The position numbers and the translations under genes are program-made. The notes under the pieces were generated by a model, which searched no databases, was not told the origin of the DNA, and saw nothing but the letters and a program-made list of their open reading frames with translations. This document shows positions 29,353 through 49,260 of a stretch of 53,269 bases of DNA, piece by piece. Origin of the DNA: a bacterium (lineage in GTDB: Bacteria > Zhuqueibacterota > Zhuqueibacteria > Oceanimicrobiales > Oceanimicrobiaceae); assembly GCA_037446635.1 (NCBI GenBank), contig JBBIIG010000007.1, forward strand, positions 14,395-67,663, read 5' to 3'. How positions within the stretch are numbered: the stretch's first letter is position 1; every line of letters starts with the position of its first letter.

Positions 29353-31395
29353 ATGCAACAGGGACTTTCTTTCGGGGAGCGGATTAAATCTGCGCTTCCA
29401 GTTTCAGGATTAATTTCGGCTTTAGTTGGCATCGTGGATAGCTTCTCGGTCATTCGCGCCACCGCATTGTTTTTTCCATCGGCGCTGGACAAGTTTTTTT
29501 ATGTGATTTTCGCGATGGGCGTTTATATGATGATCGGCGTGGCGGTGGCCGTGATACTGGCAATCGTGCCGTTGACATTTTTTGCCTCGAAAAAAGATAT
29601 CGCGCCGACCAGACTTTCGGCCTTCTATTTCAGCCTGTTGATTGGATTGGGCGCCGGCTTTGTAACCATTGTTGAATCCGTGACTTTTTTCTATCTTTAT
29701 CTCAATCCGATTAGAGATCTATTGAAAATCGCTGGTGTCTTGATCGCAACGTACGGACTGATTCGCGTGCTGACACTCGCCTTCAGCAGAATTGATGCGC
29801 TTTGCAACGGCGTTCATGCAATCGTGAACTTCTTGGTTCGAAAACCGGTGCTCATCGGCTTCGCAATTCTTTTCGCCATTTCATGCTTTCCGGTTTTCAA
29901 TATTTGGCCACAAACCCAGATGGCCGCACAGGAGCGTCCCAACGTCATTTTAATTTCATTTGATACCTTGGCCGCACGCCACATGAGTGCGTATGGCTAT
30001 CCGAAGCAAACCACGCCCAACCTCGATCAATTAGCTGAAGCGGGGGTGCTGTTTCAAAACCACTATTCGGTCTCGCGAACCACGCTGACTTCGCACATGT
30101 CGATTCTAACGTCAACCTATCCGGGCGTGCACAAAGTCGTAGATTCCTACACCAGCGTCTTGGATGATCGCTTTATCACCCTTGCCGAGGTTTTAAAAGA
30201 AGCCGGCTATGAAAATGCCGCGTTCGTGGATGGCACCCGCGAGCTCAACATCGGCGCGGCGCACGGTTTCGACAAAGGCTTCGATTTCTACGGTCACTCC
30301 GAGGAACGGCTTACCAAGTTCGAGCGGTTGTACGTGCTCAAGCGCTTCCTCAATTTTATTGAGACTCTTTTGCACAGCCACGGCATCCCCGACATGCACA
30401 GCGAAAAAATTTTTAGCGCGGCAGCGAATTGGCTCGGGCAGCGCCGCGGCGCTCGCCCATTTTTTCTCTTTCTACACACGTATGATATCCACTCAGATTT
30501 CGGCACCACCTTACCATACGTCTCGCCGGCTGATTTCCACAAGCATGTTTACCATGAATACCAAGGAGATTTCACCGGCTGCGGCGAAAGTGGCAAATGC
30601 GCCACTGACTATTTGGTGGAAATCAACGTCAAGCTGAGAAAGGGCAAAGCGCAGGCAGCGAAGTTGCTCTCGGACGAAGACGTCAAATACATTGCATCGC
30701 TGTACGACGCTGGCATCGAATATACCGATTACCAATTTGGCCAGTTCATGGCGAAGTTGAAAAAATTAGGCTTGTTGGAAAACACACTGATTGTCGCCAC
30801 TTCCGATCACGGCGAAGAATTTTTTCAGCACGGACAAATGAAACACACGCAATATTATGATGAAATTTTGCACGTGCCGCTGATCATGTATTTCCCCAAA
30901 AAGCTGCCATCCGGTGCACGGGTTGCGAAGCTCACGCGCTCAATTGATATTTTGCCGACGATTCTCGATCTGGTTGAAGTTGATAAAACCGCGCCGCAAT
31001 TTCAGGGGAACTCGCTCTTGGCGTTTGTAAGCGGCGAAACCAACGGCGCGGAAGTCAGCCTCTTCGGCGGCGAAGATCGCCCCGTGGATATCGATACCAA
31101 ATTTTTGCGAACGGCTTCGCACAAGATCATTCTCAATGGCGCCGATCGCCGGGATTATGAATTCAATCTCGACAAACCGTTTGAGTTGTATGATCTCACG
31201 CTCGATCCAGGTGAGCAGCAAAATCGCGCGTTGTCGGATACTGCCCGGTTTAGACAGATGTTCGTGCAAATTGAGCAGTGGACGAAGGCCTGTGCTGAAC
31301 TGCGGCAGAAACTGATACCAACAGAAAACGAGAAAAAGTTGACGTTAGATGAAAAGACCAAAGAGACCTTGCGGTCGTTAGGTTATATAAAGTAA
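29353..31395 (+). CDS. Membrane-anchored sulfatase-fold (alkaline phosphatase superfamily) protein, Thr-type, LGY tail
   Basis: About 5 N-terminal TMs; PNVILISFDTL, TLTSHMS, FLHTYDIH, TSDHGEE, HVPLI; ends TLRSLGYIK; ATG 29353 after GGAGG. Confidence 0.85.
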   Translation: MQQGLSFGERIKSALPVSGLISALVGIVDSFSVIRATALFFPSALDKFFYVIFAMGVYMMIGVAVAVILAIVPLTFFASKKDIAPTRLSAFYFSLLIGLGAGFVTIVESVTFFYLYLNPIRDLLKIAGVLIATYGLIRVLTLAFSRIDALCNGVHAIVNFLVRKPVLIGFAILFAISCFPVFNIWPQTQMAAQERPNVILISFDTLAARHMSAYGYPKQTTPNLDQLAEAGVLFQNHYSVSRTTLTSHMSILTSTYPGVHKVVDSYTSVLDDRFITLAEVLKEAGYENAAFVDGTRELNIGAAHGFDKGFDFYGHSEERLTKFERLYVLKRFLNFIETLLHSHGIPDMHSEKIFSAAANWLGQRRGARPFFLFLHTYDIHSDFGTTLPYVSPADFHKHVYHEYQGDFTGCGESGKCATDYLVEINVKLRKGKAQAAKLLSDEDVKYIASLYDAGIEYTDYQFGQFMAKLKKLGLLENTLIVATSDHGEEFFQHGQMKHTQYYDEILHVPLIMYFPKKLPSGARVAKLTRSIDILPTILDLVEVDKTAPQFQGNSLLAFVSGETNGAEVSLFGGEDRPVDIDTKFLRTASHKIILNGADRRDYEFNLDKPFELYDLTLDPGEQQNRALSDTARFRQMFVQIEQWTKACAELRQKLIPTENEKKLTLDEKTKETLRSLGYIK

Positions 31396-31419
31396 ACTTG
31401 ATGAGGTTTGAAACGAGCG

Positions 31420-33282
31420 ATGAATGAAAGAAAGACGTTAGTGAATGCGATCAAGTTGAGTTTGTATTGGGGATTGCTTTTCGGATCGCTGATTGGGTTG
31501 GCGTTGGCGGTTTACGACGTGTACGTTTCCAACCACTTTTTCCAAAAGGGGTTGACGCTGATTGTGTTCGAGGTGTTTTTCGAGAAGCTGATGCGGTCGG
31601 TCGCCAGTGCCGTGGCCATACTGTTGCTGCTCTTGCCGGCGATTGATTTCGCCAGCCGCGCCTTGTCTGAAATTAAGGACACCCGGCTCGCCAGATTTGC
31701 AGCGATCCTTGGCGGCATGCTGCTGGTTGGTGGCGGCTACTCTCTCAACAAATCGACCTGGTACCCGCCGCTACTGTCGCCCGCCGGCCTGTTGAGCAAC
31801 GGTTTCTTTGCATTGGCCTGCCTGGGTTTGACGATCGCGCTTTACAAAATTTTCCTGAAACTGAATTTGAAATTGCCGACGCCGTTTCCGGGCGCCCTGG
31901 GTAAGTTATACAACAAATGGGCGTGGGGTGGATTGCTCGTCATATTTGTGGCATTCAACGCTTACGCATATTGGCGAATCAACTCGCAGCAGCCGCAGGG
32001 ACCGAATCTTGTCATCATCACCATTGACACGTTGCGCGCCGATCGCCTCGGCTGCTACGGCTACGAACGCAACACCAGTCCAACCATCGATCGGCTGGCG
32101 CGCGAGGGCACGCTGTTCAAACACGCCTACGCCCAACGCGGCTTGACCTGGCCTTCGCTGACTTCGATGATGACGTCGCTTTATCCAAAAACCCACGGCG
32201 TTTTGAACAATCAGGTGCCGCTGGACGGCGAATTTATTACGCTAGCTGAAATTTTAAAAAACGGCGGTTATAAAACCGGCGCGTTTTTGGCGAATTTTTA
32301 CCACTCGCCCAACCGCGGTTTCGATACCAAAAAAGGCGGCGAAATCGGCGACCTCGATAAAGCCGTCACGAGTTACGCGCTGGAGTGGCTCGATTCCATC
32401 AACCCCCAAAATGATAAATTTTTTATGTGGGTGCATTATAAAAATCCCCACGATCCCTATGAGCCGCCGAAGCCCTTCACGACCTTTTTTGATTCCACTT
32501 ACACCGGCTCGTTCAACGGCAGCCGGCCAGTGCTGGATTCTATCTACGTCAACCAAATCGATCTGAGCGAGCGCGATTTGTTTCATCTCAACGCGCTCTA
32601 CGACGCCGAGATCCGATCTTCGGACAGCTACATCGAAAAAGTTTTGGCGAAGCTCGAAAAAATGGGCGTGCTGGAAAACACGCTCATCGTTTTCGCCTCC
32701 GATCACGGCGAAGAGATGTACGATCACAATTACTACTTTTTCCACAGTTGCTCGATGTACGAGGGCGTGCTGCACATTCCGCTCATCATGAAATTTCCCG
32801 GCGTCATCCCGGCCGGCAAAATCGTTGACAATCAAATCGAAAGCATCGATATTGTGCCCACGGTTTTGCAGTTAATGAAGCTTCCGCTACGAGAGGAGTT
32901 TGAGGGCCGCAGCATTATTGGTTTACTGTTTGAAGATTCCAGCGATCTCTGGCATCCGGCGTTTGGCGAGCGCGCCAGCGCCATTTATTCGATTCGCACT
33001 CCGCAGTGGAAATACATCTATAATCCCGACAACTACCACACCTACTGCTCACGCAGCGACGACGATCAAGGGGAAGGTTACATCATCGAGGCGGAGGAGC
33101 TCTATGACGTGCAAAAGGATCCGCACGAGAAGCACAACATCGTGTCGCAGCATCGCGAGGTGGCGCTGGAGCTGCGCGCCCAAATTCTCGAATGGCTCAA
33201 CACCAACAAGCGCGTTCACAAAGAATACGAACTCACCAAAGAAGCCGAGGAACGGCTGCGCGCGCTGGGGTATATAAAATGA
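31420..33282 (+). CDS. Membrane-anchored sulfatase-fold protein, Thr-type, LGY tail (alternative TTG start 31408)
   Basis: PNLVIITIDTLRAD, TWPSLTS, WVHYKNPHDPY, SDHGEE; ends RLRALGYIK. Confidence 0.85.
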   Translation: MNERKTLVNAIKLSLYWGLLFGSLIGLALAVYDVYVSNHFFQKGLTLIVFEVFFEKLMRSVASAVAILLLLLPAIDFASRALSEIKDTRLARFAAILGGMLLVGGGYSLNKSTWYPPLLSPAGLLSNGFFALACLGLTIALYKIFLKLNLKLPTPFPGALGKLYNKWAWGGLLVIFVAFNAYAYWRINSQQPQGPNLVIITIDTLRADRLGCYGYERNTSPTIDRLAREGTLFKHAYAQRGLTWPSLTSMMTSLYPKTHGVLNNQVPLDGEFITLAEILKNGGYKTGAFLANFYHSPNRGFDTKKGGEIGDLDKAVTSYALEWLDSINPQNDKFFMWVHYKNPHDPYEPPKPFTTFFDSTYTGSFNGSRPVLDSIYVNQIDLSERDLFHLNALYDAEIRSSDSYIEKVLAKLEKMGVLENTLIVFASDHGEEMYDHNYYFFHSCSMYEGVLHIPLIMKFPGVIPAGKIVDNQIESIDIVPTVLQLMKLPLREEFEGRSIIGLLFEDSSDLWHPAFGERASAIYSIRTPQWKYIYNPDNYHTYCSRSDDDQGEGYIIEAEELYDVQKDPHEKHNIVSQHREVALELRAQILEWLNTNKRVHKEYELTKEAEERLRALGYIK

Positions 33283-33462: not shown

Positions 33463-35643
33463 ATGAAACAGATGAAACAAAATTCCATTTTCACAGGCGC
33501 GCTCACCGGGTTGGCTGGCGGACTCGTGCTTTTTTTCAGCGAGTTGATATTAACCTGGGTCCACGCCGAAATCGATGTTCGAACCTATGGGTTTTATTTC
33601 TTACTTTACGTCGCCTCCGGTTTGGCGGGCGGTGCCGTGTTTTCATTTTTGTTGAAGGTGTTAACGGCGCGCATCAATTGGCTTGCAAAATTTTTAGAAA
33701 GTCCGAGCTTTTTTCTGTCGGCTTTTTTGTTTATCGTTTTTTGGGGATACACCTTCTATTACTTAAATCAGGTTATTACTCCGGGGGTGGGTGTTTTTCA
33801 ACCCTTTAGCATCGTCATTAATCTCATAATGCTTGCTTGCGCGAGCGGCATTTTCTTTTTGGCACTACGCTTTCCAGTTTCCCAAAACGCCGCGCTATCT
33901 TTTTTGGGAATGTCGGCGCTGCCGTTATCAGCGCTGGTGGCGGTGAATGTGCGCTTTTTTATTTGGCAGCCGCTGTACACGCAAACTGAGGTCGCGATTC
34001 GTGCGACCTTTGCGTTTGGCGCCGTGAGCATCATTGGCGCGGGAATCGGCTTGTTGATTTCACGACTTGTTGAAAAGAAGCCGACGCTATTCCCGCTCAT
34101 CAACTCCATTTTAGGGCTGTGCACGTTGATAGCAGTTGTTTTCTCGGGACGGCCGTCGGCGGCAAGTTTTCAAATCCATGAGCCGACGTTGTTGCGTCAG
34201 CACGAATTGCCGAACGCGAAGAACATCATTTGGATTGTGATGGACACCGCGCGCCGCGATCAATTTTCGATTTACGGCGGTGAGCCTGCCCGCCGTGACG
34301 GATCCGCTTCGCAGACGCAGGCAGGCGAGCTCGCGCGCACGCCCAATATCGACCAATTTGCCCAGGACGCGCTGGTGATGAATCGTGCCATCTCCGCCGC
34401 GCCGTGGACCATCCCGTCGCACGCCTCGATGTTCACTGGCATGTTTCCTTCGAAGCACGGCGCCGATCGCAACGTCCCCGGCGGCCGCTTCACCAATCCG
34501 CTCTCGCCGGATAATTTGACCATCGCGGAAATTCTGCAAAGCTACGGCTACGATACTGCCTGCATCGCCGCCAACGTCGCCGGCTTGTCGCGCGATTTTG
34601 GCTTCGATCAGGGCTTCAATTATTATTTTGATACCCGGCCGTTGGCGTTTCATCTGTTTTGGGGACAGGTGTTGACGATGCTGCCGGAATCTTTTCGCGC
34701 CAATCAATTGCGGGTGAATGAAATTCCCATTTCATCGGAGATCAACGGCGTGGTGTATGATTGGTTGGATCGCCGGCCAAAAAATCAGCCCTTCTTTCTG
34801 TTCATCAACTACATGGAACCGCACGATGGCGTTGAGTACATCCCCGAGCCGTTCTATTCCATGTACGGATTCAAAAAATCGGAATACGACAAAGTCTTCG
34901 AAGGCTTCGATCAATCGAAGATTGTGCATTTTGAAGCCGAGGTGACGCCAGCGCAGCAAGCGATGTTCGTGAAACTGCTGGCGCGCCGCATCTACTTTCT
35001 CGATCATCACATCGGAAAACTGCTGGCACGACTCAAAGCTGATGGCTTGTATGACGATTCGTTCATCATCATTACCTCTGATCACGGCGAGCTGAACGGC
35101 GAGCACTACTCATTTGGCCACAACACCGATTTGTACAACGAGCTGATCTGGGTGCCGCTGCTGGTGAAATATCCGGGCGCCGCTAAAACCGGCTTCAGCA
35201 ATCGCACGGTGCAGACCCTCGATATCATGCCGGAGCTGCTCAAGCATTTGAACATTCCAATTCCGGAAGAAGTGCAAGGCCAGCCTTTCGCGGAAGTGAA
35301 TCATCAAATTATTTCCGAGTTGTTTGAGCAGAAGAAGGCGCAGGCGCTGTTGTTTCCCGAACGCTACTATCGCGATCTGCGCGCCATTTACAGCACCGTC
35401 GATGGTGATTCGCTGAAATACATCTGGTCTTCCAACGGAAAAGATGAAGTGTATGACATGGCAGCCGATATATATGAGCGGAACAATATTGTGCATCTCA
35501 AGCCGGAGGCCGTCAAAAAATTGGAGCAGGAATTGAATGAGTGGTTGAAAAGTTTCCGGCCCATTGGCACGGACAACGAGGGCAAAATGAAATACAGTAA
35601 AGAAGTGGAAGAGCGGCTGCGATCGCTGGGATATTTGAAGTGA
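33463..35643 (+). CDS. Membrane-anchored sulfatase-fold protein, Thr-type, LGY tail
   Basis: About 7 TMs; NIIWIVMDTARRD, WTIPSHASMFTG, FINYMEPH, TSDHGE; ends RLRSLGYLK. Confidence 0.85.
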   Translation: MKQMKQNSIFTGALTGLAGGLVLFFSELILTWVHAEIDVRTYGFYFLLYVASGLAGGAVFSFLLKVLTARINWLAKFLESPSFFLSAFLFIVFWGYTFYYLNQVITPGVGVFQPFSIVINLIMLACASGIFFLALRFPVSQNAALSFLGMSALPLSALVAVNVRFFIWQPLYTQTEVAIRATFAFGAVSIIGAGIGLLISRLVEKKPTLFPLINSILGLCTLIAVVFSGRPSAASFQIHEPTLLRQHELPNAKNIIWIVMDTARRDQFSIYGGEPARRDGSASQTQAGELARTPNIDQFAQDALVMNRAISAAPWTIPSHASMFTGMFPSKHGADRNVPGGRFTNPLSPDNLTIAEILQSYGYDTACIAANVAGLSRDFGFDQGFNYYFDTRPLAFHLFWGQVLTMLPESFRANQLRVNEIPISSEINGVVYDWLDRRPKNQPFFLFINYMEPHDGVEYIPEPFYSMYGFKKSEYDKVFEGFDQSKIVHFEAEVTPAQQAMFVKLLARRIYFLDHHIGKLLARLKADGLYDDSFIIITSDHGELNGEHYSFGHNTDLYNELIWVPLLVKYPGAAKTGFSNRTVQTLDIMPELLKHLNIPIPEEVQGQPFAEVNHQIISELFEQKKAQALLFPERYYRDLRAIYSTVDGDSLKYIWSSNGKDEVYDMAADIYERNNIVHLKPEAVKKLEQELNEWLKSFRPIGTDNEGKMKYSKEVEERLRSLGYLK
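34285..34325. repeat. CCTGCC...GGCAGG palindromic insert, in frame within the CDS
   Basis: cctgcccgccgtgacggatccgcttcgcagacgcaggcagg between imperfect direct repeats ggtgagc/ggcgagc 45 bp apart. Confidence 0.7.
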
Positions 35644-35826: not shown

Positions 35827-37572
35827 ATGAAAAACACTATCATCAAAATTTTTGGGGGAATGGTTTGGATCGGGTTGTTCATCTACGCCATGCGCTACAT
35901 TGGCATGCAGTGGGAATATGAGGGACTCGTCAGCCGCGGGCTGATTGTTGGAATCTCGGTGCGCAACGCCACCCATATTTTATACTCCATCGCCACGCTG
36001 GCAGCCAGCGCTTTCATCGCCACGACCATCCTGGCGTTTTTCATTCTGTTATTTCGAAAACAGCGCAGCAGCGCGCAGAATGCTGGCTTGGTGTTTTCGC
36101 TGTTATCTATCGCTATTATTGGCGGCGCGTTTTATTGGAACCAACGTACCATCGCCATGAGCAAATTGCCGGTGATTTACCGCTACTATGACAGCACCGG
36201 CCGCCTGCTGGAGCCGGAGAAGCATCTCAAAAATTTGCGCAAAGTCAACGTCATTTTTATTTCGATCGACACCTTGAATCCGATGCATCTCGGCGCGTAT
36301 GGCTATGAACGCAACACCTCGCCCACCATCGATAGTCTCGCGCGCGCCGGCGTATTTTTTCAACATGCCTTCAGCCATTCGCCGAAAACCTCGCCTTCGC
36401 ACATGAGCATGTTTACCTCGCTCTATCCCTCGGTTCATAAGATCAGCAATTGGGATAAAAATCAGGGCGGTTACTCACTCGATCATCGCATCATCACGCT
36501 GCCGGAAATTCTCAAACATGCCGGCTATCGCACCGTGGCCGTGACTGGCGGTGGCAACGTGCAGAGCTTCATCGGCTTTGGCGATGGTTTCGATGAATAC
36601 GATAACGACGAAAAAGTCTGGAGCCGCGCCCTCGAGTGGCTGGATCAAAATTACCACTCGGCGCAGCAAGGCGACTCGACGTTTTTTATGTTCCTGCACA
36701 CGTTCAAAGTACATTCGCCGTATTTGCCGCCGCCGCCGTACAACACTATGTTTGGCGAGCCATACCATGGCAAGATGGTGGACTCGGAGCAAGGGCTGCA
36801 TGAAATTTTCAGAAAGAATTACAAACCGGACGATCCGTTTCCCGGTTCGCACGATCTCTTTTGGTCGGTCGTGGATAAAAACGATCCGCGTGACGTTCAG
36901 CGCTTGATCGCTCAGTACGACGGCTGCATACGGTTTGTGAATGATAAAATGATCGGCGCGCTGCTCTCTCGCCTCAAAAAATATGATCTCACCAAAAACA
37001 CCCTCATTGTTTTCACCTCCGATCACGGCGAGGAATTTTTGCAGCACGGCGATTTTCTTCACAAAGAGCTTTACGACGAGCACATCCGCGTGCCGCTGAT
37101 CTTCAAATTTCCGGATGGCGACACCTGGAACCAGCGCGTGGTGAGCCAGCAGGTGGCGATGATCGATTTGATGCCGACGATTTTGGAATATCTCGGATTG
37201 CCGATTCCCGAAATGGTACAGGGCACCAGCCTGTTCTCCATTTTGGAAGGCAAAGAATTGAACCTGCCGGTGATGAGCGAGTGCATTGCGCTTGGCGACG
37301 TGCCGGATTACAAAAAGTCCATCCGCACCTTAGACTGGAAATATATTTTTTGGCCTACGAAAAAAGTCGAGGAACTTTACAACCTGCCCACGGACCCCGG
37401 CGAGCAAGTCAACGTTTTCAAAGAGCAGCCGGCCGTGGCGGCAGACTTCAATCGGCAGATTATGGAGTGGATGAACGACAACTCCCAGCGCGGGCAGTCC
37501 ATCCGGACGATCACCAAAGAATTTGACCAGGCCACGATCGAAAAGCTGAAATCGTTGGGATACATTCGCTAA
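35827..37572 (+). CDS. Membrane-anchored sulfatase-fold protein, Thr-type, LGY tail
   Basis: 3 TMs; NVIFISIDTL, KTSPSHMSMFTS, FLHTFKVHSPY, TSDHGEE; ends KLKSLGYIR. Confidence 0.85.
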   Translation: MKNTIIKIFGGMVWIGLFIYAMRYIGMQWEYEGLVSRGLIVGISVRNATHILYSIATLAASAFIATTILAFFILLFRKQRSSAQNAGLVFSLLSIAIIGGAFYWNQRTIAMSKLPVIYRYYDSTGRLLEPEKHLKNLRKVNVIFISIDTLNPMHLGAYGYERNTSPTIDSLARAGVFFQHAFSHSPKTSPSHMSMFTSLYPSVHKISNWDKNQGGYSLDHRIITLPEILKHAGYRTVAVTGGGNVQSFIGFGDGFDEYDNDEKVWSRALEWLDQNYHSAQQGDSTFFMFLHTFKVHSPYLPPPPYNTMFGEPYHGKMVDSEQGLHEIFRKNYKPDDPFPGSHDLFWSVVDKNDPRDVQRLIAQYDGCIRFVNDKMIGALLSRLKKYDLTKNTLIVFTSDHGEEFLQHGDFLHKELYDEHIRVPLIFKFPDGDTWNQRVVSQQVAMIDLMPTILEYLGLPIPEMVQGTSLFSILEGKELNLPVMSECIALGDVPDYKKSIRTLDWKYIFWPTKKVEELYNLPTDPGEQVNVFKEQPAVAADFNRQIMEWMNDNSQRGQSIRTITKEFDQATIEKLKSLGYIR

Positions 37573-37599
37573 TCGGATTTGATTGAAATGCTTCTTTTT

Positions 37600-38262: not shown

Positions 38263-38326
38263 GGCGATAGTCAAAAAGGCGTGTGCAAATTTACTGGTTC
38301 TATAGATTATTATCAAGCTTAACTTA

Positions 38327-41142: not shown

Positions 41143-43305
41143 ATGAGTCGAAAAAATTGGGTTTGGTTAAGTCTGTTCGTCACCCTTCTTTTCATGAGTG
41201 ATACCCAGCCGGTGTTAGCCTATATTGGCCCGGGCGCGGGCTTCGCATTTCTCACTTCATTTTTGATGTTGTTCGCCAGTTTTTTTATGGCGTTTTTTAC
41301 GCTACTTACTCTGCCCATCCGCATGATCTTTCGCTTTTTCCGGCAACGCAAAGCATTGGCGAAAGCGAAAGCCAACCGCGTGGTAATTCTGGGTCTGGAC
41401 GGGCTTGAACCGACCATAACCGAGCGGCTCCTCAAAGAAGGGAAGCTGCCCAACCTGGCGAAACTGCAAGAACAGGGATCGTATTCGGAATTGCAAACTA
41501 CCTATCCCGCGTTGTCACCGGTGGCGTGGTCGACTTTTGCTACCGGGGTGGGACCCGGCGGTCACAACATTTTCGATTTTCTTTCTCGTGATAAGCACTC
41601 CTATCTTCCGGATCTGTCTTCTTCGAAGGTCGGAACCACCAGTCGAAAGCTGAATATCGGGAGCTTCCAAATTCCGCTTGGCAAACCGGTCGTTCGCTTT
41701 CTGCGGCGGAGCAAAAGTTTTTGGAAGATCTTAGGCGACCACGGCATCTTCAGTCACGTGCTGCGCGTGCCGATCACCTTCCCGCCGGAGAAATTCAACG
41801 GCGCGCTGCTCTCCGCGATGTGCGCCCCGGATTTGTGGGGAACGCAGGGCACGTTTTCTCTTTTCACAACGGAAGAAAAATCCCACAAGTTCAAAGAAGG
41901 CGGAGAGGTGATGCGGGTGCAGATGGTGGGAAAGCGAGTGGAGGGGTACATCAAAGGCCCGGAGAATACTATCAAAAAGAATCCAGAGCCGATGCGTCTG
42001 CCGTTTGTGGTGAATGTGCTCAGCGAAGATGAGGCGGAGCTGATTATCGAAAAGAAAAAGTATTCGCTGAAAAAGAACACCTACACTGAGTGGATCGAGC
42101 TGAAATTCAAAGCCGGGCTGGGCATCAAAGTGCAGGGCATCGCGCGGTTTTATTTGCTGGAGACGCAGCCGAACTTTCGCCTTTACATGACGCCCATCAA
42201 CATCGATCCGGAAAATCCCGCGCTGCCGATTTCGTTTCCCTATTTTTACTCGGTCTATCTTTCGAAGCTGTTTGGCAAATTCGCCACGTTGGGATTGGCG
42301 GAGGATACGTGGTCGCTCAACGAGCGCGTGCTCAACGAAGACGCCTTTTTAGAGCAAGCTTATTTGATTCACGAGGAGCGCGAGAAGCAGTTTTTCCACG
42401 CGCTGGACAAAACGAAAAAAGGCGTGTGCGGCGTTGTGATTGACGCCACCGATCGCATTCAGCACATGTTTTTCCGCACGCTTGAGGCGGATCATCCCGC
42501 CAACCGTGACAAAGAAACCGAGAAGTACAAAAACGTCATCGAAGATCTTTATGTTCGAATGGACGATCTCGTTGGCCGCACGATGGCAAAAATTGGCAAG
42601 AACGATGTGTTCATCGTGCTCTCGGATCACGGCTTCAAATCGTTCCGCCGCGGCATTAACTTGAACGCGTGGCTGAAAGTCAATGGTTATCTTAAATTGA
42701 AAGAGGGCGTCACGGAAAGCGGCGAGTTTTTCAAAGGTGTTGATTGGGAACACACCAAAGCCTACGCCTTCGGGCTCGCCGGCATTTATCTCAACGTAAA
42801 AGGGCGGGAAAAGCACGGCGTGGTGGAGCCGGGCGAAGAATACAATCGCTTGAAGCAGCAGCTCATCGAAGAGCTATCGGGTTTGATCGATCCGCAGACC
42901 GGCGAAGTAGCCATCACGGAGATGTTCGACAATCGGGAAATTTACCAGGGCCCGTACGCCGACAGCGGCCCGGATTTGATCAGCGGCTACAATATCGGCT
43001 ACCGCATTTCGTGGAACGGCGCCACCGGCGTGGTCAACGACGAGATTTTTGAGGACAACACCAAATCGTGGAGCGGCGACCACTGCATGGATCCGCGGCT
43101 CTTGCCGGGCGTGATTTTCAGCAACCGCAAAATCACTGCCGCCAAACCGGGATTGGTTGATCTCGCGCCCACGGTGCTCGATCTGTTCGGCGTCAACGCG
43201 CCCGCGTACATGGAAGGCAAAAGCATTTTTAACGAAGTGGAAGCCGCGCCGCAAAAACAAGTCAAATTGAAAAAACAAGAAGAGGTGGTTGCGATTAATG
43301 GTTAG
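41143..43305 (+). CDS. Alkaline phosphatase superfamily (NPP/phosphodiesterase-like) protein with signal-like leader, YIGPG motif and TM anchor
   Basis: VVILGLDG, PALSPVAWSTF, DRIQHMF, LSDHGF, WSGDH, DLAPTVL; GGAG RBS before ATG 41143. Confidence 0.85.
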   Translation: MSRKNWVWLSLFVTLLFMSDTQPVLAYIGPGAGFAFLTSFLMLFASFFMAFFTLLTLPIRMIFRFFRQRKALAKAKANRVVILGLDGLEPTITERLLKEGKLPNLAKLQEQGSYSELQTTYPALSPVAWSTFATGVGPGGHNIFDFLSRDKHSYLPDLSSSKVGTTSRKLNIGSFQIPLGKPVVRFLRRSKSFWKILGDHGIFSHVLRVPITFPPEKFNGALLSAMCAPDLWGTQGTFSLFTTEEKSHKFKEGGEVMRVQMVGKRVEGYIKGPENTIKKNPEPMRLPFVVNVLSEDEAELIIEKKKYSLKKNTYTEWIELKFKAGLGIKVQGIARFYLLETQPNFRLYMTPINIDPENPALPISFPYFYSVYLSKLFGKFATLGLAEDTWSLNERVLNEDAFLEQAYLIHEEREKQFFHALDKTKKGVCGVVIDATDRIQHMFFRTLEADHPANRDKETEKYKNVIEDLYVRMDDLVGRTMAKIGKNDVFIVLSDHGFKSFRRGINLNAWLKVNGYLKLKEGVTESGEFFKGVDWEHTKAYAFGLAGIYLNVKGREKHGVVEPGEEYNRLKQQLIEELSGLIDPQTGEVAITEMFDNREIYQGPYADSGPDLISGYNIGYRISWNGATGVVNDEIFEDNTKSWSGDHCMDPRLLPGVIFSNRKITAAKPGLVDLAPTVLDLFGVNAPAYMEGKSIFNEVEAAPQKQVKLKKQEEVVAING

Positions 43306-45277
43306 ATTTTCAAAAAGCTTGGTGATTGCTTTGCTATTATCGATCGCCTGCATGGTTGTGCTGATTGCCAACTCCGGCTGCAGCAAAGGCCGGGCAAAGA
43401 CCGTCAATCAAAAAGTGATCGTCGTTGGTTTTGATGGCCTCGATCCGGATCTTGTCAAACAATACATGGCGCAGGGCCGAATGCCCAACTTCGCAAAGCT
43501 GGCGGAACAGGGAGATTTTCGTTCCCTCGGCACCAGCGTGCCGCCGCAGAGTCCGGTGGCGTGGTCGAATTTCATTACCGGCATGAATCCCGGCGGCCAT
43601 GGTATTTACGATTTCATCCATCGTGATCCGGAACACATGGTGCCGGTATCGTCCACCTCTAAAACCGAGGGCTCGAGCAAATCAATTCGCTTCGGCAAAT
43701 GGGTGCTGCCGCTCGCCGGCGGCAAGATTCACAATCTCCGCGAGGGCGACGCCTTTTGGGTGATGTTAGAAAAGAGCGGCGTCCCGACGACAATTTTCAG
43801 AGTGCCGGCCAATTTTCCGCCCGTAGAATATGAGGGCAAATCGTTGAGCGGAATGGGGACACCGGATATTCTCGGATCGTTCGGGACGTTTTCGTTTTAC
43901 ACGGATGATCCGCCGCCCAATCGCGATGACATCTCCGGCGGCGTGGTGTATCCGGTCGAGGTCAAAGACCACGCTTTTGAAGCGAAATTAGTTGGTCCCA
44001 AAAACGCTTTTTTGAAAGATCAACCCGACGCGGTGATTCCATTCAAAGTCTGGCTCGATCCCGAATATCCCACCGCCAAAATTGAAGTGCAGGGCAAACA
44101 ATTTTTGCTGAAGGAAAAAGAGTGGAGCGATTGGCTGCGCTTGGATTTTGCGATGATTCCCTATGTGACCGGCGTCAAAGGCATCTGCCGGTTTTATCTC
44201 AAACAAGTACGGCCAAACATCAAGCTGTACGTTTCGCCGATCAATATCGATCCTTCCGAGCCAGCGATGCCGATTTCCACGCCCGAGGACTGGTCGCAGC
44301 AATTGCATCACGACTGCGGCGATTTTTACACCAAAGGCATGCCGGAGGAAACCAAGGCGCTGTCCTGGGGCGTGTTCGATTATGATGATTATCGTACCCA
44401 GAGCAACCACGTTATGGGCGAGAGCATTCGCCTGTTCGATTACCTGTTCGATAAATTTACAGATGGTTTTCTGTTCTTCTATTTTGGTACCACGGATCTC
44501 AACGCGCACATGTTTTACAGCATGATCGATCCGCAGCACCCGAGCTACGACGCGGAGAAGGCCAAAGAGTTCGGCGATGAACTGCCGTCGCTTTATCAAA
44601 CTGTCGATGGCGTTGTTGGCAAGATTATGAACCGCCTGGACGACAAAACCACCTTGCTGGTGATTTCCGATCATGGTTTTGCGCCGTTTCGGCGCGCGTT
44701 TCATTTGAATACCTGGTTGAAGAACGAGGGTTACATTACGCTGATCGATGAGTCGAAACAAACGGAGAGTGAATATTTTGCGAACGTGGATTGGGCGCGA
44801 ACGCGCGCGTATGGCTTGGGCTTCAACGGCTTGTACTTGAATCTGCGCGGCCGCGAAGCCAATGGTAGCGTCTCGAAGCGCGAACGCGAGGCCTTGCTCA
44901 CCGAACTCACTGAAAAGCTGCTGGCGCTGCGCGACCCCCAAAACGGTGAGCGCATCGTCCATCGCGTGGACCGCGCCGAAAAGGTTTACTCCGGCAGGAA
45001 CATTGACTCTGCGCCGGATTTAATTGTGGGGTATGCGCGCGGTTACCGCGCTTCCTGGGAGACGACCATCGGGAATTTTCCGCTGGAAATCATTGAAGAC
45101 AACCGCGACCCGTGGAGCGGCGACCATCTCATGGCGGCCGACCTGGTCCCCGGAGTCATAGTGACGAACAAGAAAATTAAAGCCGAGAATCCCATGCTAT
45201 ATGATATCGCGCCGACGATTTTGAGTCTGTACGGCGTGGAGAAGAACGACGAAATGGTTGGTCATTCGATTTTCTGA
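43298..45277 (+). CDS. Alkaline phosphatase superfamily (NPP-like) protein, probable lipoprotein
   Basis: Leader ending LIANSG-C; VVGFDGLD, PQSPVAWSNF, TDLNAHMF, ISDHGF, WSGDH; paralogue of the upstream gene; ATG overlaps its stop. Confidence 0.85.
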   Translation: MVRFSKSLVIALLLSIACMVVLIANSGCSKGRAKTVNQKVIVVGFDGLDPDLVKQYMAQGRMPNFAKLAEQGDFRSLGTSVPPQSPVAWSNFITGMNPGGHGIYDFIHRDPEHMVPVSSTSKTEGSSKSIRFGKWVLPLAGGKIHNLREGDAFWVMLEKSGVPTTIFRVPANFPPVEYEGKSLSGMGTPDILGSFGTFSFYTDDPPPNRDDISGGVVYPVEVKDHAFEAKLVGPKNAFLKDQPDAVIPFKVWLDPEYPTAKIEVQGKQFLLKEKEWSDWLRLDFAMIPYVTGVKGICRFYLKQVRPNIKLYVSPINIDPSEPAMPISTPEDWSQQLHHDCGDFYTKGMPEETKALSWGVFDYDDYRTQSNHVMGESIRLFDYLFDKFTDGFLFFYFGTTDLNAHMFYSMIDPQHPSYDAEKAKEFGDELPSLYQTVDGVVGKIMNRLDDKTTLLVISDHGFAPFRRAFHLNTWLKNEGYITLIDESKQTESEYFANVDWARTRAYGLGFNGLYLNLRGREANGSVSKREREALLTELTEKLLALRDPQNGERIVHRVDRAEKVYSGRNIDSAPDLIVGYARGYRASWETTIGNFPLEIIEDNRDPWSGDHLMAADLVPGVIVTNKKIKAENPMLYDIAPTILSLYGVEKNDEMVGHSIF

Positions 45278-45368: not shown

Positions 45369-45560
45369 ATGTTAGGCCCTAAAATCAAATTGGAAAAAGA
45401 TCTCTATGATCGCGTGAAAAAATATTCTGAAATCGCCGGCTATTCTTCCATCGATGAGTTTGTCACACACGTTTTGGAGAAAGAATTGTCGAACGTCGAT
45501 GACTCCGCCTCCGAAGAAGAAATCAAAAAGCGGCTGCAGGGGTTGGGGTATTTGTCATAG
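45369..45560 (+). CDS. Small ribbon-helix-helix (CopG-like) protein with C-terminal LGY tail
   Basis: PKIKLEKDLYDRVKKYSEIAGYSSIDEFVTHVLEKEL then SEEEIKKRLQGLGYLS; AGGAG RBS. Confidence 0.8.
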   Translation: MLGPKIKLEKDLYDRVKKYSEIAGYSSIDEFVTHVLEKELSNVDDSASEEEIKKRLQGLGYLS

Positions 45561-45626: not shown

Positions 45627-45640
45627 GCTAGTCGAAAAAA

Positions 45641-46468
45641 ATGTTTGACATCATAAACAGTATTTTCAGCGGGATTTTTAACGCTCTCTTTTTCCCCTTC
45701 AAAAATCTCAACCCGCTTTGGGGGATGCTAGCGATTTCCTTGCTGGCAAGCATTGTCATCCTGCTGATCTTGAAAGCCACATCGGATCAAGCGGGCATCA
45801 AACGGGCGAAAAATTTGATGAAGGGCCATTTTCTGGCGTTTCGCCTTTACCGTGATGACATCGGCCTGATGCTGGATACATTCAAAAACATGCTCTTCAG
45901 CAATCTGTTGTATTTGCGAAAGTCGTTCAAGCCGATTCTGTTTTTTATCCTTCCGGTGGTGGTGATTATCATTCAACTCGGGGCGCGTTACGAGTACCGG
46001 CCATTTCGGATCGGGGAACCGATCATCGTCACCTTGCAGGCAGACGATCTCGCCGAGAAAGTTGATTTGAGTCAGGTTGAGCTGCAATTGCCGGAGGGTT
46101 TGACCGCCGATATGCTGCCGGTGCGCATCAAGCAGCTTCGTGAAATCAACTGGCGTTTGCTGGCTGAGAAGCCGGGCGTGTATGAGATCGTTTTTAAATT
46201 CGGTGAGAATAGCGTCAAAAAACGCATCGAGGTGGAGCAGCCGCTGGTTGCCGTTTCTCCAGCCGTGGAACAGCCGTCGTTCAAGGCCTTGATTAATCCC
46301 GCTGAGCGTAGTCTGCCGACGTCCAGCTTTGCCGCGGCGATTTCCATTCTTTATCCCCGCCGCGATTTTGACGTGTTTGGATTCAACCTGCATTGGTTGG
46401 TTGCGTTTTTTGTGGTCAGCCTGATATTGGCCCTGGCTTTAAAAAGGGTGTTTGATGTGGAATTTTAG
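45641..46468 (+). CDS. DUF106/EMC3/TMCO1-like (Oxa1 superfamily) membrane protein with an inserted soluble domain
   Basis: Amphipathic N-helix, TM1, TSDQAGIKRAK coiled region, SFKPILFFILP TM2, soluble insert, HWLVAFFVVSLILALALKRVF TM3. Confidence 0.65.
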   Translation: MFDIINSIFSGIFNALFFPFKNLNPLWGMLAISLLASIVILLILKATSDQAGIKRAKNLMKGHFLAFRLYRDDIGLMLDTFKNMLFSNLLYLRKSFKPILFFILPVVVIIIQLGARYEYRPFRIGEPIIVTLQADDLAEKVDLSQVELQLPEGLTADMLPVRIKQLREINWRLLAEKPGVYEIVFKFGENSVKKRIEVEQPLVAVSPAVEQPSFKALINPAERSLPTSSFAAAISILYPRRDFDVFGFNLHWLVAFFVVSLILALALKRVFDVEF

Positions 46469-46537
46469 CGAACTTATGTTCTGCACATGCGAAGAACTTG
46501 TGTACTATATTTCTGACAAATTTGAAATAGGAGAGCG

Positions 46538-47359
46538 ATGAGTTACAGGCTGCTGTCGTTCAAATCAGGCCGGGAACATGATTTAGATCAGTGGAATAAT
46601 CGCAGTCTTGCAGGGGAATTGAGAAGCTTTGAAGGGAGGACGTTAGTTCGAATTTTCGAACAACATCTGAATGGGAGCAAGCTAAGGATCCTTGAGGGCG
46701 GGTGCGGCTTCGGCGCTTGGTGTGAATGGTTCCAACGCAAGGGTTATGAGATTGTTGGCATTGAATATGATCGCGAGATAGTGTCGCGCGCCCGGCAATT
46801 CAAACCGGATGTGGCGGTGGAGTTTGGCGATATCACTAATCTCAATTATCCCGACAATTCTTTTGACGCTTACATTTCATTGGGCGTGATCGAGCATTTT
46901 GAGCATGGCCCAGAAAAGGCGCTGCGGGAAGCCCATCGCGTTTTAAAACCGGGCGGCCTGGCTTTCGTGACTACGCCGGTGGTGACGCCGTTGCGGCGAG
47001 TCGTTGCCCATCCGGTGCGCAGCCTCTATTTTTTGATTCGGCGGCTGAAGGGCAAGCCAAATTATTTTTGGGAATACCGCTTCACCCGCCGCGAGTTGCG
47101 CAGCTTTTTGGAGCAAACGGGTTTTGAAATCATTCACGAAGATATTGATGATTACGAGCCCAGCGAAAAAAATCGGCACATCGGACTTTGGGCGGATTGG
47201 TTTCCGCTGCGCAAGCGCGATGGAGAAATTTGGGAACTCAACGTCGTCGGCAAAGTTTTGCTGCGGATTCTGCGCCTATTCCCCGCAACGTGGTTTTGCT
47301 CGGGTCTGCATCTGGTGGCCAGAGCCAGAAAAGAGGGTCTCAAGGAAATAAAGAAATAG
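46538..47359 (+). CDS. Class I SAM-dependent methyltransferase
   Basis: ILEGGCGFG, YPDNSFD, SLGVIEHF, RVLKPGG. Confidence 0.88.
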   Translation: MSYRLLSFKSGREHDLDQWNNRSLAGELRSFEGRTLVRIFEQHLNGSKLRILEGGCGFGAWCEWFQRKGYEIVGIEYDREIVSRARQFKPDVAVEFGDITNLNYPDNSFDAYISLGVIEHFEHGPEKALREAHRVLKPGGLAFVTTPVVTPLRRVVAHPVRSLYFLIRRLKGKPNYFWEYRFTRRELRSFLEQTGFEIIHEDIDDYEPSEKNRHIGLWADWFPLRKRDGEIWELNVVGKVLLRILRLFPATWFCSGLHLVARARKEGLKEIKK

Positions 47360-47430
47360 GTAATGAAGAAATTAGGGCCTATGGCCGAACCTACTTATTT
47401 CCCGAGCTCTTTAATTTTCCTAAATTTCCT
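47342..47430. repeat. Inverted short-unit repeat (GGAAAT-type)
   Basis: aaggaaata/aagaaatag/aagaaattagg mirrored by tatttccc/aattttcct/aaatttcct. Confidence 0.5.
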
Positions 47431-47488
47431 CTTATATTGTTACATCATTTGATCAAACTCCAATAGGAAAACAGCCGAAAGGAATACC

Positions 47489-48652
47489 ATGGATTTAATT
47501 GCACCACACGGGGGTAAGCTGATTGATCGGGAATTGCGGGGCGATGCCCGCGCCGCGGCGCTTGAAAGAGCGCGGTCCCTCAAACAGCTTAAAATCAACT
47601 CCACCACCATCTCCGATCTCGAGCTTATCGCCACGGGCGTGTTCAGCCCGCTCACCGGCTTTTTGAAGCGCGCGGATTATCAGAGCGTGGTGGAAACGAT
47701 GCACTTGAAAAATGGGTTGGTTTGGTCCATCCCCATCACACTGGCCGTGACCTCCGACTTCGCTGAGAAAGTCAAGCTTGGCGAGGAAATCGTTTTGACG
47801 ATGGAAAGTGGCCTGCCGTTGGCGTTGATGACGGTGGAAGAGAAATATCCCTACGACAAAACCCGCGAAGCGCAGATGGTTTACAAAACCACCGAAACCG
47901 CGCACCCCGGCGTAGCTCGGCTAATGAATCAGGGCGATGTGCTTTTGGGCGGCGACATTCAACTGCTCAATCGCGTTCCCAACCAGCCGTTTGCCGAATT
48001 CCGCTTCGATCCCGCGCAGACTCGCCGCATGTTTGCGGAACGCGGCTGGAAGCGGGTAGTGGGATTTCAGACGCGCAATCCCATTCATCGCGCCCACGAG
48101 TATATTCAGAAATGCGCCCTCGAAATTGTGGACGGCCTGTTTTTGAATCCACTGGTGGGCGAAACCAAAAGCGATGATATCCCCGCGGACACCCGCATGT
48201 TGAGTTACCAGCGCTTGCTCGCCGATTATTATCCGATGAACCGCACCCTTTTGTGTGTATTCCCGGCAGCGATGCGCTATGCCGGCCCGCGCGAGGCGAT
48301 CTTTCACGCGGTATGCCGCAAAAATTACGGCTGCACCCATTTCATCGTTGGCCGCGACCACGCCGGCGTCGGCAACTACTACGGAACCTTCGATGCGCAA
48401 AAGATTTTCGATGATTTTTCCCCCGAAGAAATCGGCATCACACCGCTGTTTTTCGATCACACTTTTTATTGCAAAAAGTGCGGGGGCGTTGTGTCGAGTA
48501 AAACCTGCCCGCATGAACGCAGCCACCACCTGATACTGAGCGGCACGCAGGTGCGCGAAATGCTAACGAAAGGCGAACTGCCGCCGCCGGAATTCACCCG
48601 CGCGGAAGTGGCGGACATTTTAATTGATGGCTATCGCCGGCAAACGGCTTAG
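47489..48652 (+). CDS. sat: Sulfate adenylyltransferase (ATP sulfurylase, Sat type)
   Basis: [52 protein letters not shown]. Confidence 0.96.
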
Positions 48653-48693
48653 CTAAGCGATAAACAATTCATTTTCTAAGGAGACACCAATCA

Positions 48694-49260
48694 ATGTATT
48701 CAACTCGTGAAAAGGCCTGCACGATCTGGTTCACCGGCTTACCATCCTCCGGAAAATCGACTTTAGCTGAAATGCTCGAAAAGGAACTGCGCAAGCGCGG
48801 TCGCTACGTGGAAATTTTGGACGGCGACGTCGTGCGCACCCACCTGAGCAAGGGGCTGGGCTTTAGCCGTGAAGATCGCGACACCAACATTCGCCGCATC
48901 GGCTTCGTTTGCCATCTACTCACCCGCAATGACGTGTTTGCGATTTCCGCTGCTATCTCGCCCTATCGCAACATCCGCGACGAAAACCGCGCCATGATTG
49001 GCGATTTTGTCGAGGTGTATGTGCGCTGCCCGTTGGAAGAGTGCATCCGGCGCGATGTCAAGGGGCTCTACAAAAAAGCGCTTGCCGGAGAAATTACCGA
49101 CTTCACCGGAATTTCCGATCCCTACGAAGAACCGCTGAATCCCGAGGTGATTGTGGATACCATGACGGAAGAACCAGCGGAAAGCCTTCAAAAAATCCTC
49201 TCAAGATTGATTGAGTTGGGATACCTGGCGGAAGAAAAAAGTCAGAAGGCAGCGGCTTAA
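48694..49260 (+). CDS. cysC: Adenylyl-sulfate (APS) kinase
   Basis: [50 protein letters not shown]. Confidence 0.96.

Follow-up and report, generated by a model that had tools for sequence, protein, structure and literature searches.

LtaS, EptA and OpgB combine an N-terminal bundle of transmembrane (TM) helices with an outward-facing domain carrying a Thr nucleophile, and caprazamycin is said to be sulfated in two steps, from Cpz8 to Cpz4, via a phenolic shuttle. Periplasmic arylsulfate sulfotransferases (ASSTs) are PAPS-independent and use aryl-sulfate donors, the physiological roles of most of them being poorly understood according to the accessible part of the source (PMC13426309). In Halobacterium salinarum, two sulfatase/AP-fold proteins encoded in a glycan cluster, Agl30 (VNG1056C) and Agl31 (VNG1057C), are each required for sulfating a distinct sugar and are sufficient for glycan sulfation in Haloferax volcanii; Agl31 is cytosolic, the donor is unknown, and the accessible text neither addresses the mechanism nor contains the term 'PAPS' (PMC11980604). 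The Dlt (DltB/DltX/DltD) and PatAB systems shuttle an activated group between enzymes across the membrane by an invariant Tyr within a short terminal peptide, microprotein and fused-tail forms coexisting, as the available portion of the text has it (PMC12148441).

The window, a 53,269-nucleotide stretch of contig C7 from a genome of the Zhuqueibacterota, encodes four Thr-type sulfatase-fold enzymes (S1-S4) and a quartet consisting of APa, APb, a 63-aa LGY-tailed mini-protein and an Oxa1-family protein. S1-S4 can be likened, by description, to Agl30 and Agl31, for which the accessible text describes no trans-membrane module. With Dlt and PatAB the likeness is one of logic only, with no sequence relation: an acyl group and an MBOAT channel there (in the text available), a proposed sulfuryl group, an Oxa1-fold protein and AP-fold enzymes on both faces here, and no Pfam match to MBOAT/SGNH relay enzymes of the FxYxxF shuttle type among the 37 window proteins. 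By analogy, Agl30/Agl31 and Dlt/PatAB are partial precedents for the relay proposed below. S1-S4 share the TM bundle and outward Thr domain of LtaS, EptA and OpgB, at the level of hydropathy-based topology, but are far nearer to sulfatase profiles, are LGY-tailed, and are linked to sulfate activation rather than to phospholipid donors. ASSTs and Cpz8-Cpz4 differ in their beta-propeller/His chemistry and small-molecule shuttle; PAPS-independent aryl-sulfate transfer is the point of likeness to ASST, which was not found in this genome, and arylsulfotransferase genes adjoin the quartet in one locus (L092).

Gene content of the locus

Every ORF that an earlier note had listed for 29353..49260 is present on the + strand with the same start. 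The features of the window are:

13953..18028, + strand: Wzy/O-antigen-ligase-like gene, GT4, Wzx flippase (PF04932, PF00534, PF01943)
29353..31395, + strand: S1 (PF00884 E 7e-52; T-L-T-S-H; ends LRSLGYIK; 5 TM)
31420..33282, + strand: S2 (PF00884 E 8e-56; T-W-P-S-L; ends LRALGYIK)
33463..35643, + strand: S3 (PF00884 E 1e-40; T-I-P-S-H; ends LRSLGYLK; 7 TM)
35827..37572, + strand: S4 (PF00884 E 7e-44; T-S-P-S-H; ends LKSLGYIR; 3 TM)
38327..40903, + strand: membrane-anchored heparinase II/III-like lyase (PF16889, PF07940; 5 TM)
41143..43305, + strand: APa (PF01663), with signal peptide, mature N-terminal Tyr, one TM helix and Ser-type AP/NPP domain
43298..45277, + strand: APb (PF01663), exported Ser-type paralogue, lipobox-like here
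45369..45560, + strand: mini-protein, 63 aa, RHH-like body and LGY tail (Tyr61; LGY in 86/88 homologues)
45641..46468, + strand: Oxa1-superfamily (DUF106/TMCO1-type) 3-TM protein, 275 aa (MJ0480 profile match)
46538..47359, + strand: SAM-dependent methyltransferase (PF08241; orthologues in 5/80 loci)
47489..48652, + strand: sat, ATP sulfurylase (TIGR00339 over cut-off)
48694..49260, + strand: cysC, APS kinase (TIGR00455 over cut-off)

In the Pfam scan of the window, the sulfatase-fold and quartet genes are co-directional and embedded among genes for glycosyltransferases, Wzx and Wzy; the Wzx/Wzy cluster is the likely acceptor pathway of the sulfate. The lyase gene is accessory and confined to close relatives (6/80 loci by neighbour clusters), and hints at a uronate-containing polymer, whereas the methyltransferase is a family-specific passenger. 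The lyase gene and an MNT-HEPN pair, both inside 29353..49260, had been overlooked in the first reading.

That four of the proteins are membrane-anchored and of the Thr-type sulfatase fold was confirmed by PF00884 matches above the cut-off (E range 1e-40 to 8e-56), Thr nucleophile motifs and N-terminal TM segments. The TM counts come from plain hydropathy scanning rather than from purpose-built topology software (for S2, 3 by the scan and 5 by eye, with two weaker segments), and their odd numbers are consistent with outward-facing catalytic domains. The formylglycine motif of the S1 family of sulfatases is [CS]xPxR; it is absent from the scanned stretches of our S1-S4, that of S3 ending just past the motif. 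In that family, formylglycine arises from Cys or Ser (PMC9825549, accessible part). The AP-like fold fits formylglycine-dependent sulfatases of this kind, but the assignment was rejected, the catalytic residue being Thr, with Arg at +4 in 0/4. From their sequences, S1-S4 are predicted to be periplasmic sulfotransferases. All four share with the mini-protein a C-terminal LxxLGY tail, which had escaped the earlier note.

APa and APb, recognized in that note as Ser-type AP-superfamily paralogues, indeed both match PF01663, both contain S-P-V-A-W and are 38% identical; with this match and a two-metal site they group with NPP/AP bimetallo-enzymes. The APa ligands, with roles assigned by motif as in APb (D60, S99, D411, H415, D469, H470 and H621 in mature-chain numbering), are conserved, and across 85 APa and 71 APb sequences conservation of the two-metal set with its Ser/Thr nucleophile reaches 97-100%; a search for sequence relatives of APa in the PDB found none (best E 0.53). 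In 87/87 APa homologues, YxGPG follows A/G at a signal-peptidase-type site, with an invariant Tyr at a fixed 55-56 aa from the catalytic motif/domain; a median of 8 K/R follows the TM helix, and the AP/NPP domain is predicted to face the cytoplasm. The mature N-terminal Tyr here (codon 41221-41223) had gone unremarked. YxGPG occurs in none of 69 APb homologues, among which a loose regex finds 42 Tat-like and 24 lipobox-like signals and 14 cases of neither, these last retaining hydrophobic signals. Sequence features support the placement of APa and APb on opposite membrane faces.

The mini-protein is a predicted cytoplasmic carrier. Its ORF stands as first described, and the RHH label is weakly backed (NikR E 0.3-1.3; DUF7557 E 0.009). 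Co-folding, which the earlier note had suggested as a check, gave a passing APa-mini complex, with a score of 0.74 against 0.00 for the best of 3 controls (the pass mark is reached by 116/157 solved complexes and 2/215 mismatched pairs), agreement between runs in at least 93% of contacts and partner pLDDT of at least 77. The predicted interface comprises mini-protein residues 52-62 and, on APa, H415 (a metal ligand by motif), W617, T363 and F120, cleft residues that an alignment shows conserved in APb; the APa residues contacting the RHH body (S164, P578, Y579, P661) are not. Because the nucleophile S99 is not listed in this interface and no partner is named for Tyr61, the tail may be a docking or inhibitory peptide. 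The sequence L..LGY also stands in the last helix of CysC itself, in keeping with a tail derived from a docking element.

The DUF106/Oxa1-like label holds: a profile of 32 homologues matches archaeal MJ0480 (5c8j) with E 3.9e-9, although the 275-aa protein as a single sequence has 0 Pfam matches and PF01956, matched by 5/32 members with a best E of 0.0059, stays below the cut-off. The AF2 model (pLDDT 94.8) has a cytoplasmic coiled coil, and its top VIA match is a multipass translocon chain (7tut_8; Z 9.0, rmsd 3.9, 134 aligned over 21-275). Like MJ0480, TMCO1, EMC3 and Get1, it shows an amphipathic N-helix, TM1, cytoplasmic coiled coil, TM2 and TM3; unlike archaeal DUF106/MJ0480, it is bacterial, operon-bound and patchy (31/131 and 57/201 genomes) and carries an inserted outward beta-sandwich of ~135 aa.

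Sulfate activation and the distribution of the quartet

As noted earlier, sat and cysC lie beside the quartet, both exceeding NCBIfam cut-offs, and the window has no sulfotransferase signature, with no family match anywhere on contig C7 in the genome profile search. The claim that canonical sulfotransferases are lacking fails for the genome, which encodes four of the P-loop type on other contigs (two on C54, one each on C74 and C82), the C82 one orthologous to a quartet-flanking gene. The window cysC is the sole match found in the genome and must therefore also supply the other three, which could consume PAPS; PAPS is not orphaned here. The C82 sulfotransferase (C82:5078-5650) exceeds the PF13469/PF00685 cut-off, has an invariant RSGTS loop followed by a second motif, R...S, scores 365 bits against the quartet-flanking family profile and shares 63% identity with the copy next to the quartet in L015; its best PDB matches, weak at E 1e-3, are the phenol sulfotransferases SULT1A.

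All four quartet genes are present together in 52 of 57 well-flanked loci (drawn from 80 fetched), across many phyla; L104 and L057 are without APb. A C82-type gene lies within 10 kb in 31/80 loci, and in 28 of these 31 it immediately precedes APa or immediately follows the Oxa1-like gene. Since its orthologue flanks the quartet in 28/57 loci, the C82 sulfotransferase is the likely loader. Across the 131 genomes of the phylum, profiling links the quartet to sulfation genes as the earlier note anticipated: comparing genomes with and without the Oxa1-like gene, cysC is found in 30/31 versus 60/100, the C82-type sulfotransferase in 20/31 versus 21/100, and long Thr-type/LGY profile matches in 24/31 versus 0/100, the last with a cut (frames of at least 570 aa) chosen after the data were seen, which one Oxa-negative 565-aa frame just misses, and with only 12 or 8 candidates scored per genome. 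Family members adjacent to the quartet were the source of the profiles, and related genomes are not independent.

In the 201 genomes of the G131 phylum, the C82-type sulfotransferase occurs in 40/57 quartet genomes versus 9/144, and a 430-aa AP protein in 14/17 quartet genomes that lack it; 7/31 quartet genomes of the home phylum (89-96% complete) have neither. The two share 0/57 quartet loci; they coexist in 5 quartet genomes and are at most 4 kb apart in G062, G082 and G104, and so are not simple substitutes. Thr-type/LGY matches in the G131 phylum number 39/57 versus 30/144 without the Oxa1-like gene. Of these 30 genomes, 25 have a long APa/APb-like protein, and all 14 loci read contain a lone exported enzyme of this kind with no mini-protein or Oxa1-like neighbour; Thr/LGY enzymes can thus exist without the quartet channel.

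Fusions and gene order point the same way as co-occurrence: L111 encodes an 878-aa Sat-AP fusion; 8 loci, every one of them with the 430-aa AP, encode a CysC extended by an LGY tail; and L095 and L107 have Thr-type genes between APa and APb with sat-cysC upstream. Directly upstream of APa in L092 lie three membrane-anchored genes, both of the two scanned being PF14269 arylsulfotransferases, and a free signal-Tyr-TM peptide. A conserved, sulfation-linked unit of AP pair, carrier-like peptide, Oxa1-family protein and Thr-type enzymes is supported; of the sulfuryl-relay reading in the earlier note, this part survives, and PAPS use without a canonical sulfotransferase does not.

A candidate sulfuryl relay and its alternatives

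Envelope sulfation by some route is likely. That the quartet relays the sulfuryl group of PAPS, probably bound to tyrosines, through the inner membrane to S1-S4 we consider evenly poised between right and wrong; gene content, conservation, motifs and co-occurrence behind it are observed, and topology, fold and APa-mini binding are predicted. PAPS, the predicted product of Sat and CysC, would be used by the C82 sulfotransferase to sulfate the tail tyrosine of the mini-protein, which would dock on APa and pass the sulfuryl group to Ser99. From there it would move to the mature N-terminal Tyr1 of the same or a neighbouring chain, an Oxa1-type groove letting Tyr1 move between membrane faces; this is the weakest of the steps. 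Periplasmic APb would accept the group on its Ser and load the LGY tails of S1-S4, each of which, via its Thr, would transfer it to a sugar hydroxyl of the Wzx/Wzy polysaccharide outside. Lineages that have a separate ~430-aa AP or a Sat-AP fusion are a better match for direct loading from PAPS onto an AP enzyme in the cytoplasm.

The quartet could also serve periplasmic sulfation with a lipid or small aryl carrier, the LGY motifs being docking tags and the Oxa1-like protein a dedicated insertase or scramblase. Oxa1-family proteins are insertases, the co-occurrence data fit equally well, the LGY-like helix that ends CysC is duplicated where CysC bears the tail, and the lone, channel-less APb-like enzymes, which carry an inserted TM hairpin, suit a membrane-borne donor. 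This reading is nevertheless unlikely: it leaves unexplained the invariant APa Tyr with its fixed spacing and the L092 free peptide among arylsulfotransferase genes, and the predicted interface with the tail region includes a metal ligand.

Distinctly improbable is cytoplasmic sulfation of lipid-linked repeats by the canonical sulfotransferases before flipping, with the AP-fold proteins as polymer-editing or PAP-recycling hydrolases. Four such sulfotransferases served by one cysC would agree with it, as would the S2 model (AF2 pLDDT 81.7; sulfatase/PMH fold), whose nearest solved folds by structure comparison are hydrolases (top Foldseek match 4uph, TM 0.74). However, three of the four sit in or beside other gene clusters, the C82 enzyme tracks the quartet rather than glycosyltransferases, S1-S4 are without the formylglycine motif, and Agl30/Agl31, in the accessible text, show the fold able to add sulfate (PMC11980604).

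We find it very improbable that S1-S4 are LtaS/EptA-like phospho-transferases acting on phospholipids, the quartet handling a phospho group or envelope quality control beside sat and cysC as neighbours of convenience. The Thr nucleophile and N-terminal TM bundle of S1-S4 and the NPP-type bimetal site of APa/APb would suit this, and weak NCBIfam EptA/MCR/LtaS matches exist, all far under cut-off (best 18-46 bits versus 400-1250); yet sulfatase-type profiles match far better (E 1e-39 to 1e-51 versus 1e-8 to 1e-12), the Sat-AP and CysC-LGY fusions speak for sulfate, and sulfur genes recur among the neighbour clusters, where no recurring phospho-donor genes were found.

Hardly credible is an inward, catabolic role in which lyase, GH39 and sulfatases desulfate glycosaminoglycan-like substrates and the quartet imports sulfate for Sat/CysC: GH39 and heparinase II/III-like genes do flank the sulfatase-fold genes, and in ~10 Vicinamibacterales-type loci the quartet adjoins an apparent assimilatory cluster (identified by inspecting N-terminal sequences rather than by a scan), but the sulfite reductase NIR_SIR was not found in the 97%-complete genome (PAPS_reduct giving only weak matches of 47 and 23 bits among long frames), the window gave no Pfam match to an outer-membrane uptake gene, and both the co-directional biosynthetic setting and the PAPS-dependent sulfotransferase partner point outward.

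If true, the tyrosine-sulfate relay would give bacteria a way of sulfating polysaccharides of which we have found no description in the literature.

Gene content of the window and sulfation genes of the genome

All genes named in the earlier note were found in the window, and all run in the same direction. The source genome is 97% complete and its nearest named relatives, judged by the PF01663 enzyme APa (predicted to face the cytoplasm), are MAGs labelled KSB1/Caldithrix (71-77% identity). The features of the polysaccharide cluster, annotated with Pfam and NCBIfam, and of its surroundings are as follows.

Polysaccharide cluster: Wzy-like protein, Wzx, GT4/GT2
Genes held in the cluster: four Thr-type sulfatase-fold genes (S1-S4), two PF01663 paralogues (APa and the exported APb), a methyltransferase, sat and cysC
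Further ORFs in the cluster: a membrane-anchored heparinase II/III-like gene, a 63-aa ORF (the mini-protein) and a 275-aa membrane ORF (the Oxa1-like protein)
20049-23419: an FrhB-like 4Fe-4S protein and a 609-aa ORF without a Pfam or NCBIfam match, within the cluster
25673-29317: immediately upstream of S1, genes for a secreted 597-aa protein (Golvesin domain at the C-terminus) and a membrane-anchored GH39
37511-38346, minus strand: an MNT nucleotidyltransferase and HepT-like HEPN pair, likely a toxin-antitoxin insertion, which separates S4 from the lyase gene and runs opposite to them

At the nucleophile position, S1-S4 carry Thr without the +4 Arg; the same position is occupied by Cys or Ser in S1 sulfatases, according to the excerpted text of PMC9825549. 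A membership test did not place S1-S4 among the S1 sulfatases. FGE, which by established chemistry cannot modify Thr, is represented by family genes elsewhere in the genome. S1-S4 and the mini-protein share an LxxLGY C-terminus (hereafter the LGY tail), present in 8 of the approximately 35,000 six-frame ORFs of the genome, 5 of these being in the window. Another of the eight is a second RHH-LGY mini-protein on contig C58, which adjoins a glycosyltransferase and a fifth Thr-type sulfatase-fold gene, soluble and without an LGY tail of its own (22594-24455 for the group); could the tail be supplied to this enzyme in trans by the second mini-protein?

The earlier note had proposed a sulfuryl relay with no canonical sulfotransferase. 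This premise did not survive an HMM check of the genome: contig C7, which holds the window, encodes no P-loop sulfotransferase, and four were found on other contigs, two on C54 and one each on C74 and C82 (the last, at 5078-5650, a small enzyme denoted ST). Given these four enzymes and the single cysC copy, the argument from orphan PAPS was rejected. Because one cysC and no sulfite reductase were found in the genome, the PAPS made in the window appears to serve sulfation without being reserved for this locus. Arylsulfotransferase PF14269 was not found in this genome, and a PF03567 search gave no match anywhere, with the controls equally silent. The C54 sulfotransferase pair sits in another glycan cluster, without cysC and with a 725-aa fusion (9076-11253) of a pyruvate-kinase-like N-terminal part, recognized by eye, and a Sat-like domain with an altered active-site motif.

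Architecture and conservation of the quartet

APa, APb, the mini-protein and the Oxa1-like protein make up a quartet. In all 87 APa ORFs with intact N-termini, a YxGPG motif, preceded by Ala in 76 and Gly in 11, lies 55-56 residues ahead of the catalytic motif; behind the YxGPG come one TM helix and a basic cluster. From this arrangement we infer that signal-peptidase-type cleavage would leave Tyr as the first residue on the outer face, with the AP domain inside. APb, placed outside on account of its Tat-like or lipoprotein-like signals, retains, as does APa, the complete two-metal site and the Ser nucleophile. The mini-protein keeps its LGY tail in 86/88 cases. A PDB sequence search with APa gave no useful match. 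The 275-aa protein belongs to the Oxa1 superfamily (profile match to MJ0480, E 3.9e-9; model pLDDT 94.8) and carries an outward beta-sandwich insert, the sole part of the model matched by Foldseek; the VIA match to chain 7tut_8, which we take to be TMCO1, has a Z of 9.0, in the range usual for helical proteins, and was counted only beside the MJ0480 match.

We fetched 80 loci that encode relatives of APa, drawn from many phyla, and left out 23 with short flanks; all four genes are present in 52 of the remaining 57. Of two candidate loaders, an orthologue of the C82 ST (~200 aa) was found in 28 of the 57 loci and a cytoplasmic ~430-aa AP protein in 19, with both in none and 10 loci without either. 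When all 80 loci are counted, ST immediately precedes APa in 13, immediately follows the Oxa1-like gene in 15 and has another position in 3. Strict mutual substitution of the two loaders is true only per quartet locus: they occur side by side in the genomes G062, G082 and G104, and seven quartet genomes of the window's phylum have neither. In the window's own family, ST is kept in 9/12 quartet genomes, this one included, mostly on a separate contig. Among the 57 loci from many phyla, sat or cysC lies within 10 kb of the quartet in 19. Neighbour clustering was swamped by shadow ORFs, and only clear clusters were used. In four loci (L099, L100, L101, L102), a ~475-aa cytoplasmic AP paralogue, a candidate third loader type, is encoded directly downstream of the Oxa1-like gene. 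Upstream of the quartet in L093 and L096 is a sulfatase-fold gene with 7 TM segments and an LGY tail, together with DUF6057 and a PD40 beta-propeller lipoprotein.

Further links between parts of the module and sulfate come from fused and inserted genes. Locus L111 encodes, in order, an 878-aa Sat-AP fusion, CysC with an appended LGY tail and the 430-aa AP; such CysC tails were seen in 8 loci, every one with the 430-aa AP. Loci L095 and L107 have Thr-type genes inserted between APa and APb, downstream of sat-cysC. In L092, APa is preceded by three similar membrane-anchored genes, two of which were scanned and proved to be arylsulfotransferases (PF14269); between the arylsulfotransferase genes, upstream of APa, a free 60-aa signal-peptide/Tyr/TM peptide that copies the APa N-terminus is encoded (12675-12857, minus strand).

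Co-occurrence across genomes

Uncultured lineages often carry the module: the Oxa1-like gene is present in 31 of the 131 genomes of the window's phylum and in 57 of the 201 Acidobacteriota genomes. In the former phylum, cysC was found in 30/31 positive vs 60/100 negative genomes, ST in 20/31 vs 21/100, and matches to the Thr/LGY profile in 24/31 vs 0/100, the last count referring to frames of at least 570 aa, a cut set after the data were seen, and to the 12 candidates that were scored in each genome; in 20 loci the presence of Thr, TM segments and tails was checked. In Acidobacteriota, ST accompanies the Oxa1-like gene in 40/57 genomes vs 9/144 without it, and 14 of the 17 quartet genomes that lack ST encode the 430-aa AP. 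The Fisher values of the analysis overstate the strength of association, since the profiles derive from genes next to the quartet, certain genomes are represented more than once (L014 = L110) and related genomes are not independent.

Thr/LGY matches occur in 39/57 Acidobacteriota genomes with the Oxa1-like gene but also in 30/144 without it. Strict dependence of the Thr/LGY enzymes on the quartet, true in the window's phylum, fails in this second one. A long APa/APb-like protein is present in 25 of these 30 genomes; in the 14 loci read this protein is an exported enzyme that stands alone, and 7 of the 9 that were aligned contain an inserted TM hairpin. These loci (L112-L125, e.g. G157:C1:142332-144449) come from Acidobacteriota-group genomes without the quartet that are rich in Thr/LGY proteins.

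A putative tyrosine-sulfate relay and its alternatives

The quartet very probably has a role in envelope sulfation by some carrier. The route we favour, at about an even chance, is a tyrosine-sulfate relay leading from the C82 ST to the glycan. ST would place sulfate on Tyr61 of the mini-protein, from which it would pass to Ser99 and then Tyr1 of APa; Tyr1 would cross the membrane via an Oxa1-type groove to reach APb, which would hand the group to the tails of S1-S4 and, through their Thr, to the glycan. The crossing, with Tyr1 reaching a cytoplasmic active site, is the least supported step.

Co-folding of mature APa (48-672) with the mini-protein supports binding of the two: the score of 0.74, vs 0.00 for the best control, passes a mark that was reached by 116/157 solved complexes and 2/215 mismatched pairs, counts that apply only approximately to our own alignments. 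At least 93% of contacts agree between runs, and partner pLDDT is at least 77. The firmest predicted contacts join mini-protein residues 23-34 to APa 163-165, 577-579 and 661-663; the predicted interface also includes mini-protein 52-62 and APa F120, P203, G207, T363, H415, W598 and W617, and its conservation is 0.75 vs an average of 0.63. The cleft residues are common to APa and APb, and the body-docking residues are not, a pattern that fits APb accepting the tails of S1-S4 and not the mini-protein. The nucleophile S99 is absent from the listed interface, and the output names no partner of Tyr61. A reading in which the LGY tails serve only for docking and the group travels on a lipid or another small carrier is rather unlikely. 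With P-loop enzymes elsewhere in the genome, sulfation could be canonical and cytoplasmic and the AP-fold proteins hydrolases, a reading that we find quite unlikely. Phospho-transfer appears very unlikely, and a membership test did not place S1-S4 with LtaS/EptA. Catabolic import, in a cluster with Wzx and a Wzy-like protein, is hardly credible.

The tyrosine-sulfate relay would share the logic of Dlt and is not an MBOAT-SGNH relay; acyl-group Tyr shuttles are established (excerpts of PMC12148441). In Halobacterium, sulfatase-fold glycan sulfotransferases have been established genetically, with no donor named in the excerpted text (PMC11980604); the likeness proposed between S1-S4 and Agl30/Agl31 (VNG1056C/VNG1057C) is one of chemistry, separate from family membership. 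The properties of ASST used for comparison come from excerpts of PMC13426309. No description of the quartet was found in the literature searched, the scope of which excluded subscription papers and bioRxiv supplements, and we came upon no published machine equivalent to it. Tentatively, we envisage a dedicated bacterial sulfuryl-export machine, in which sulfate from PAPS would be loaded on Tyr of a soluble microprotein, a signal-peptidase-exposed N-terminal Tyr would cross via an Oxa1-fold protein repurposed from insertion, and paired AP-fold enzymes would deliver to the LGY tails of a large mis-annotated "sulfatase" family and to periplasmic arylsulfotransferases; in many phyla, surface glycans would thereby be sulfated after polymerisation and at specific positions.

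Such a relay suggests, in specific terms open to experiment, how bacterial polymers could come to be sulfated on the PAPS-free side of the membrane, and points to a possible donor for sulfatase-fold sulfotransferases such as Agl30/31 and for periplasmic arylsulfotransferases. Mini-protein-like sequences form 1186 clusters at 50% identity. If the relay is real, many annotated Thr-type LGY-tailed "sulfatases" would move from degradation to biosynthesis, an Oxa1-fold protein would have its first non-insertase role, Tyr-shuttle logic would widen from acyl to sulfuryl groups, and enzymes would be available to make heparin-like polymers.
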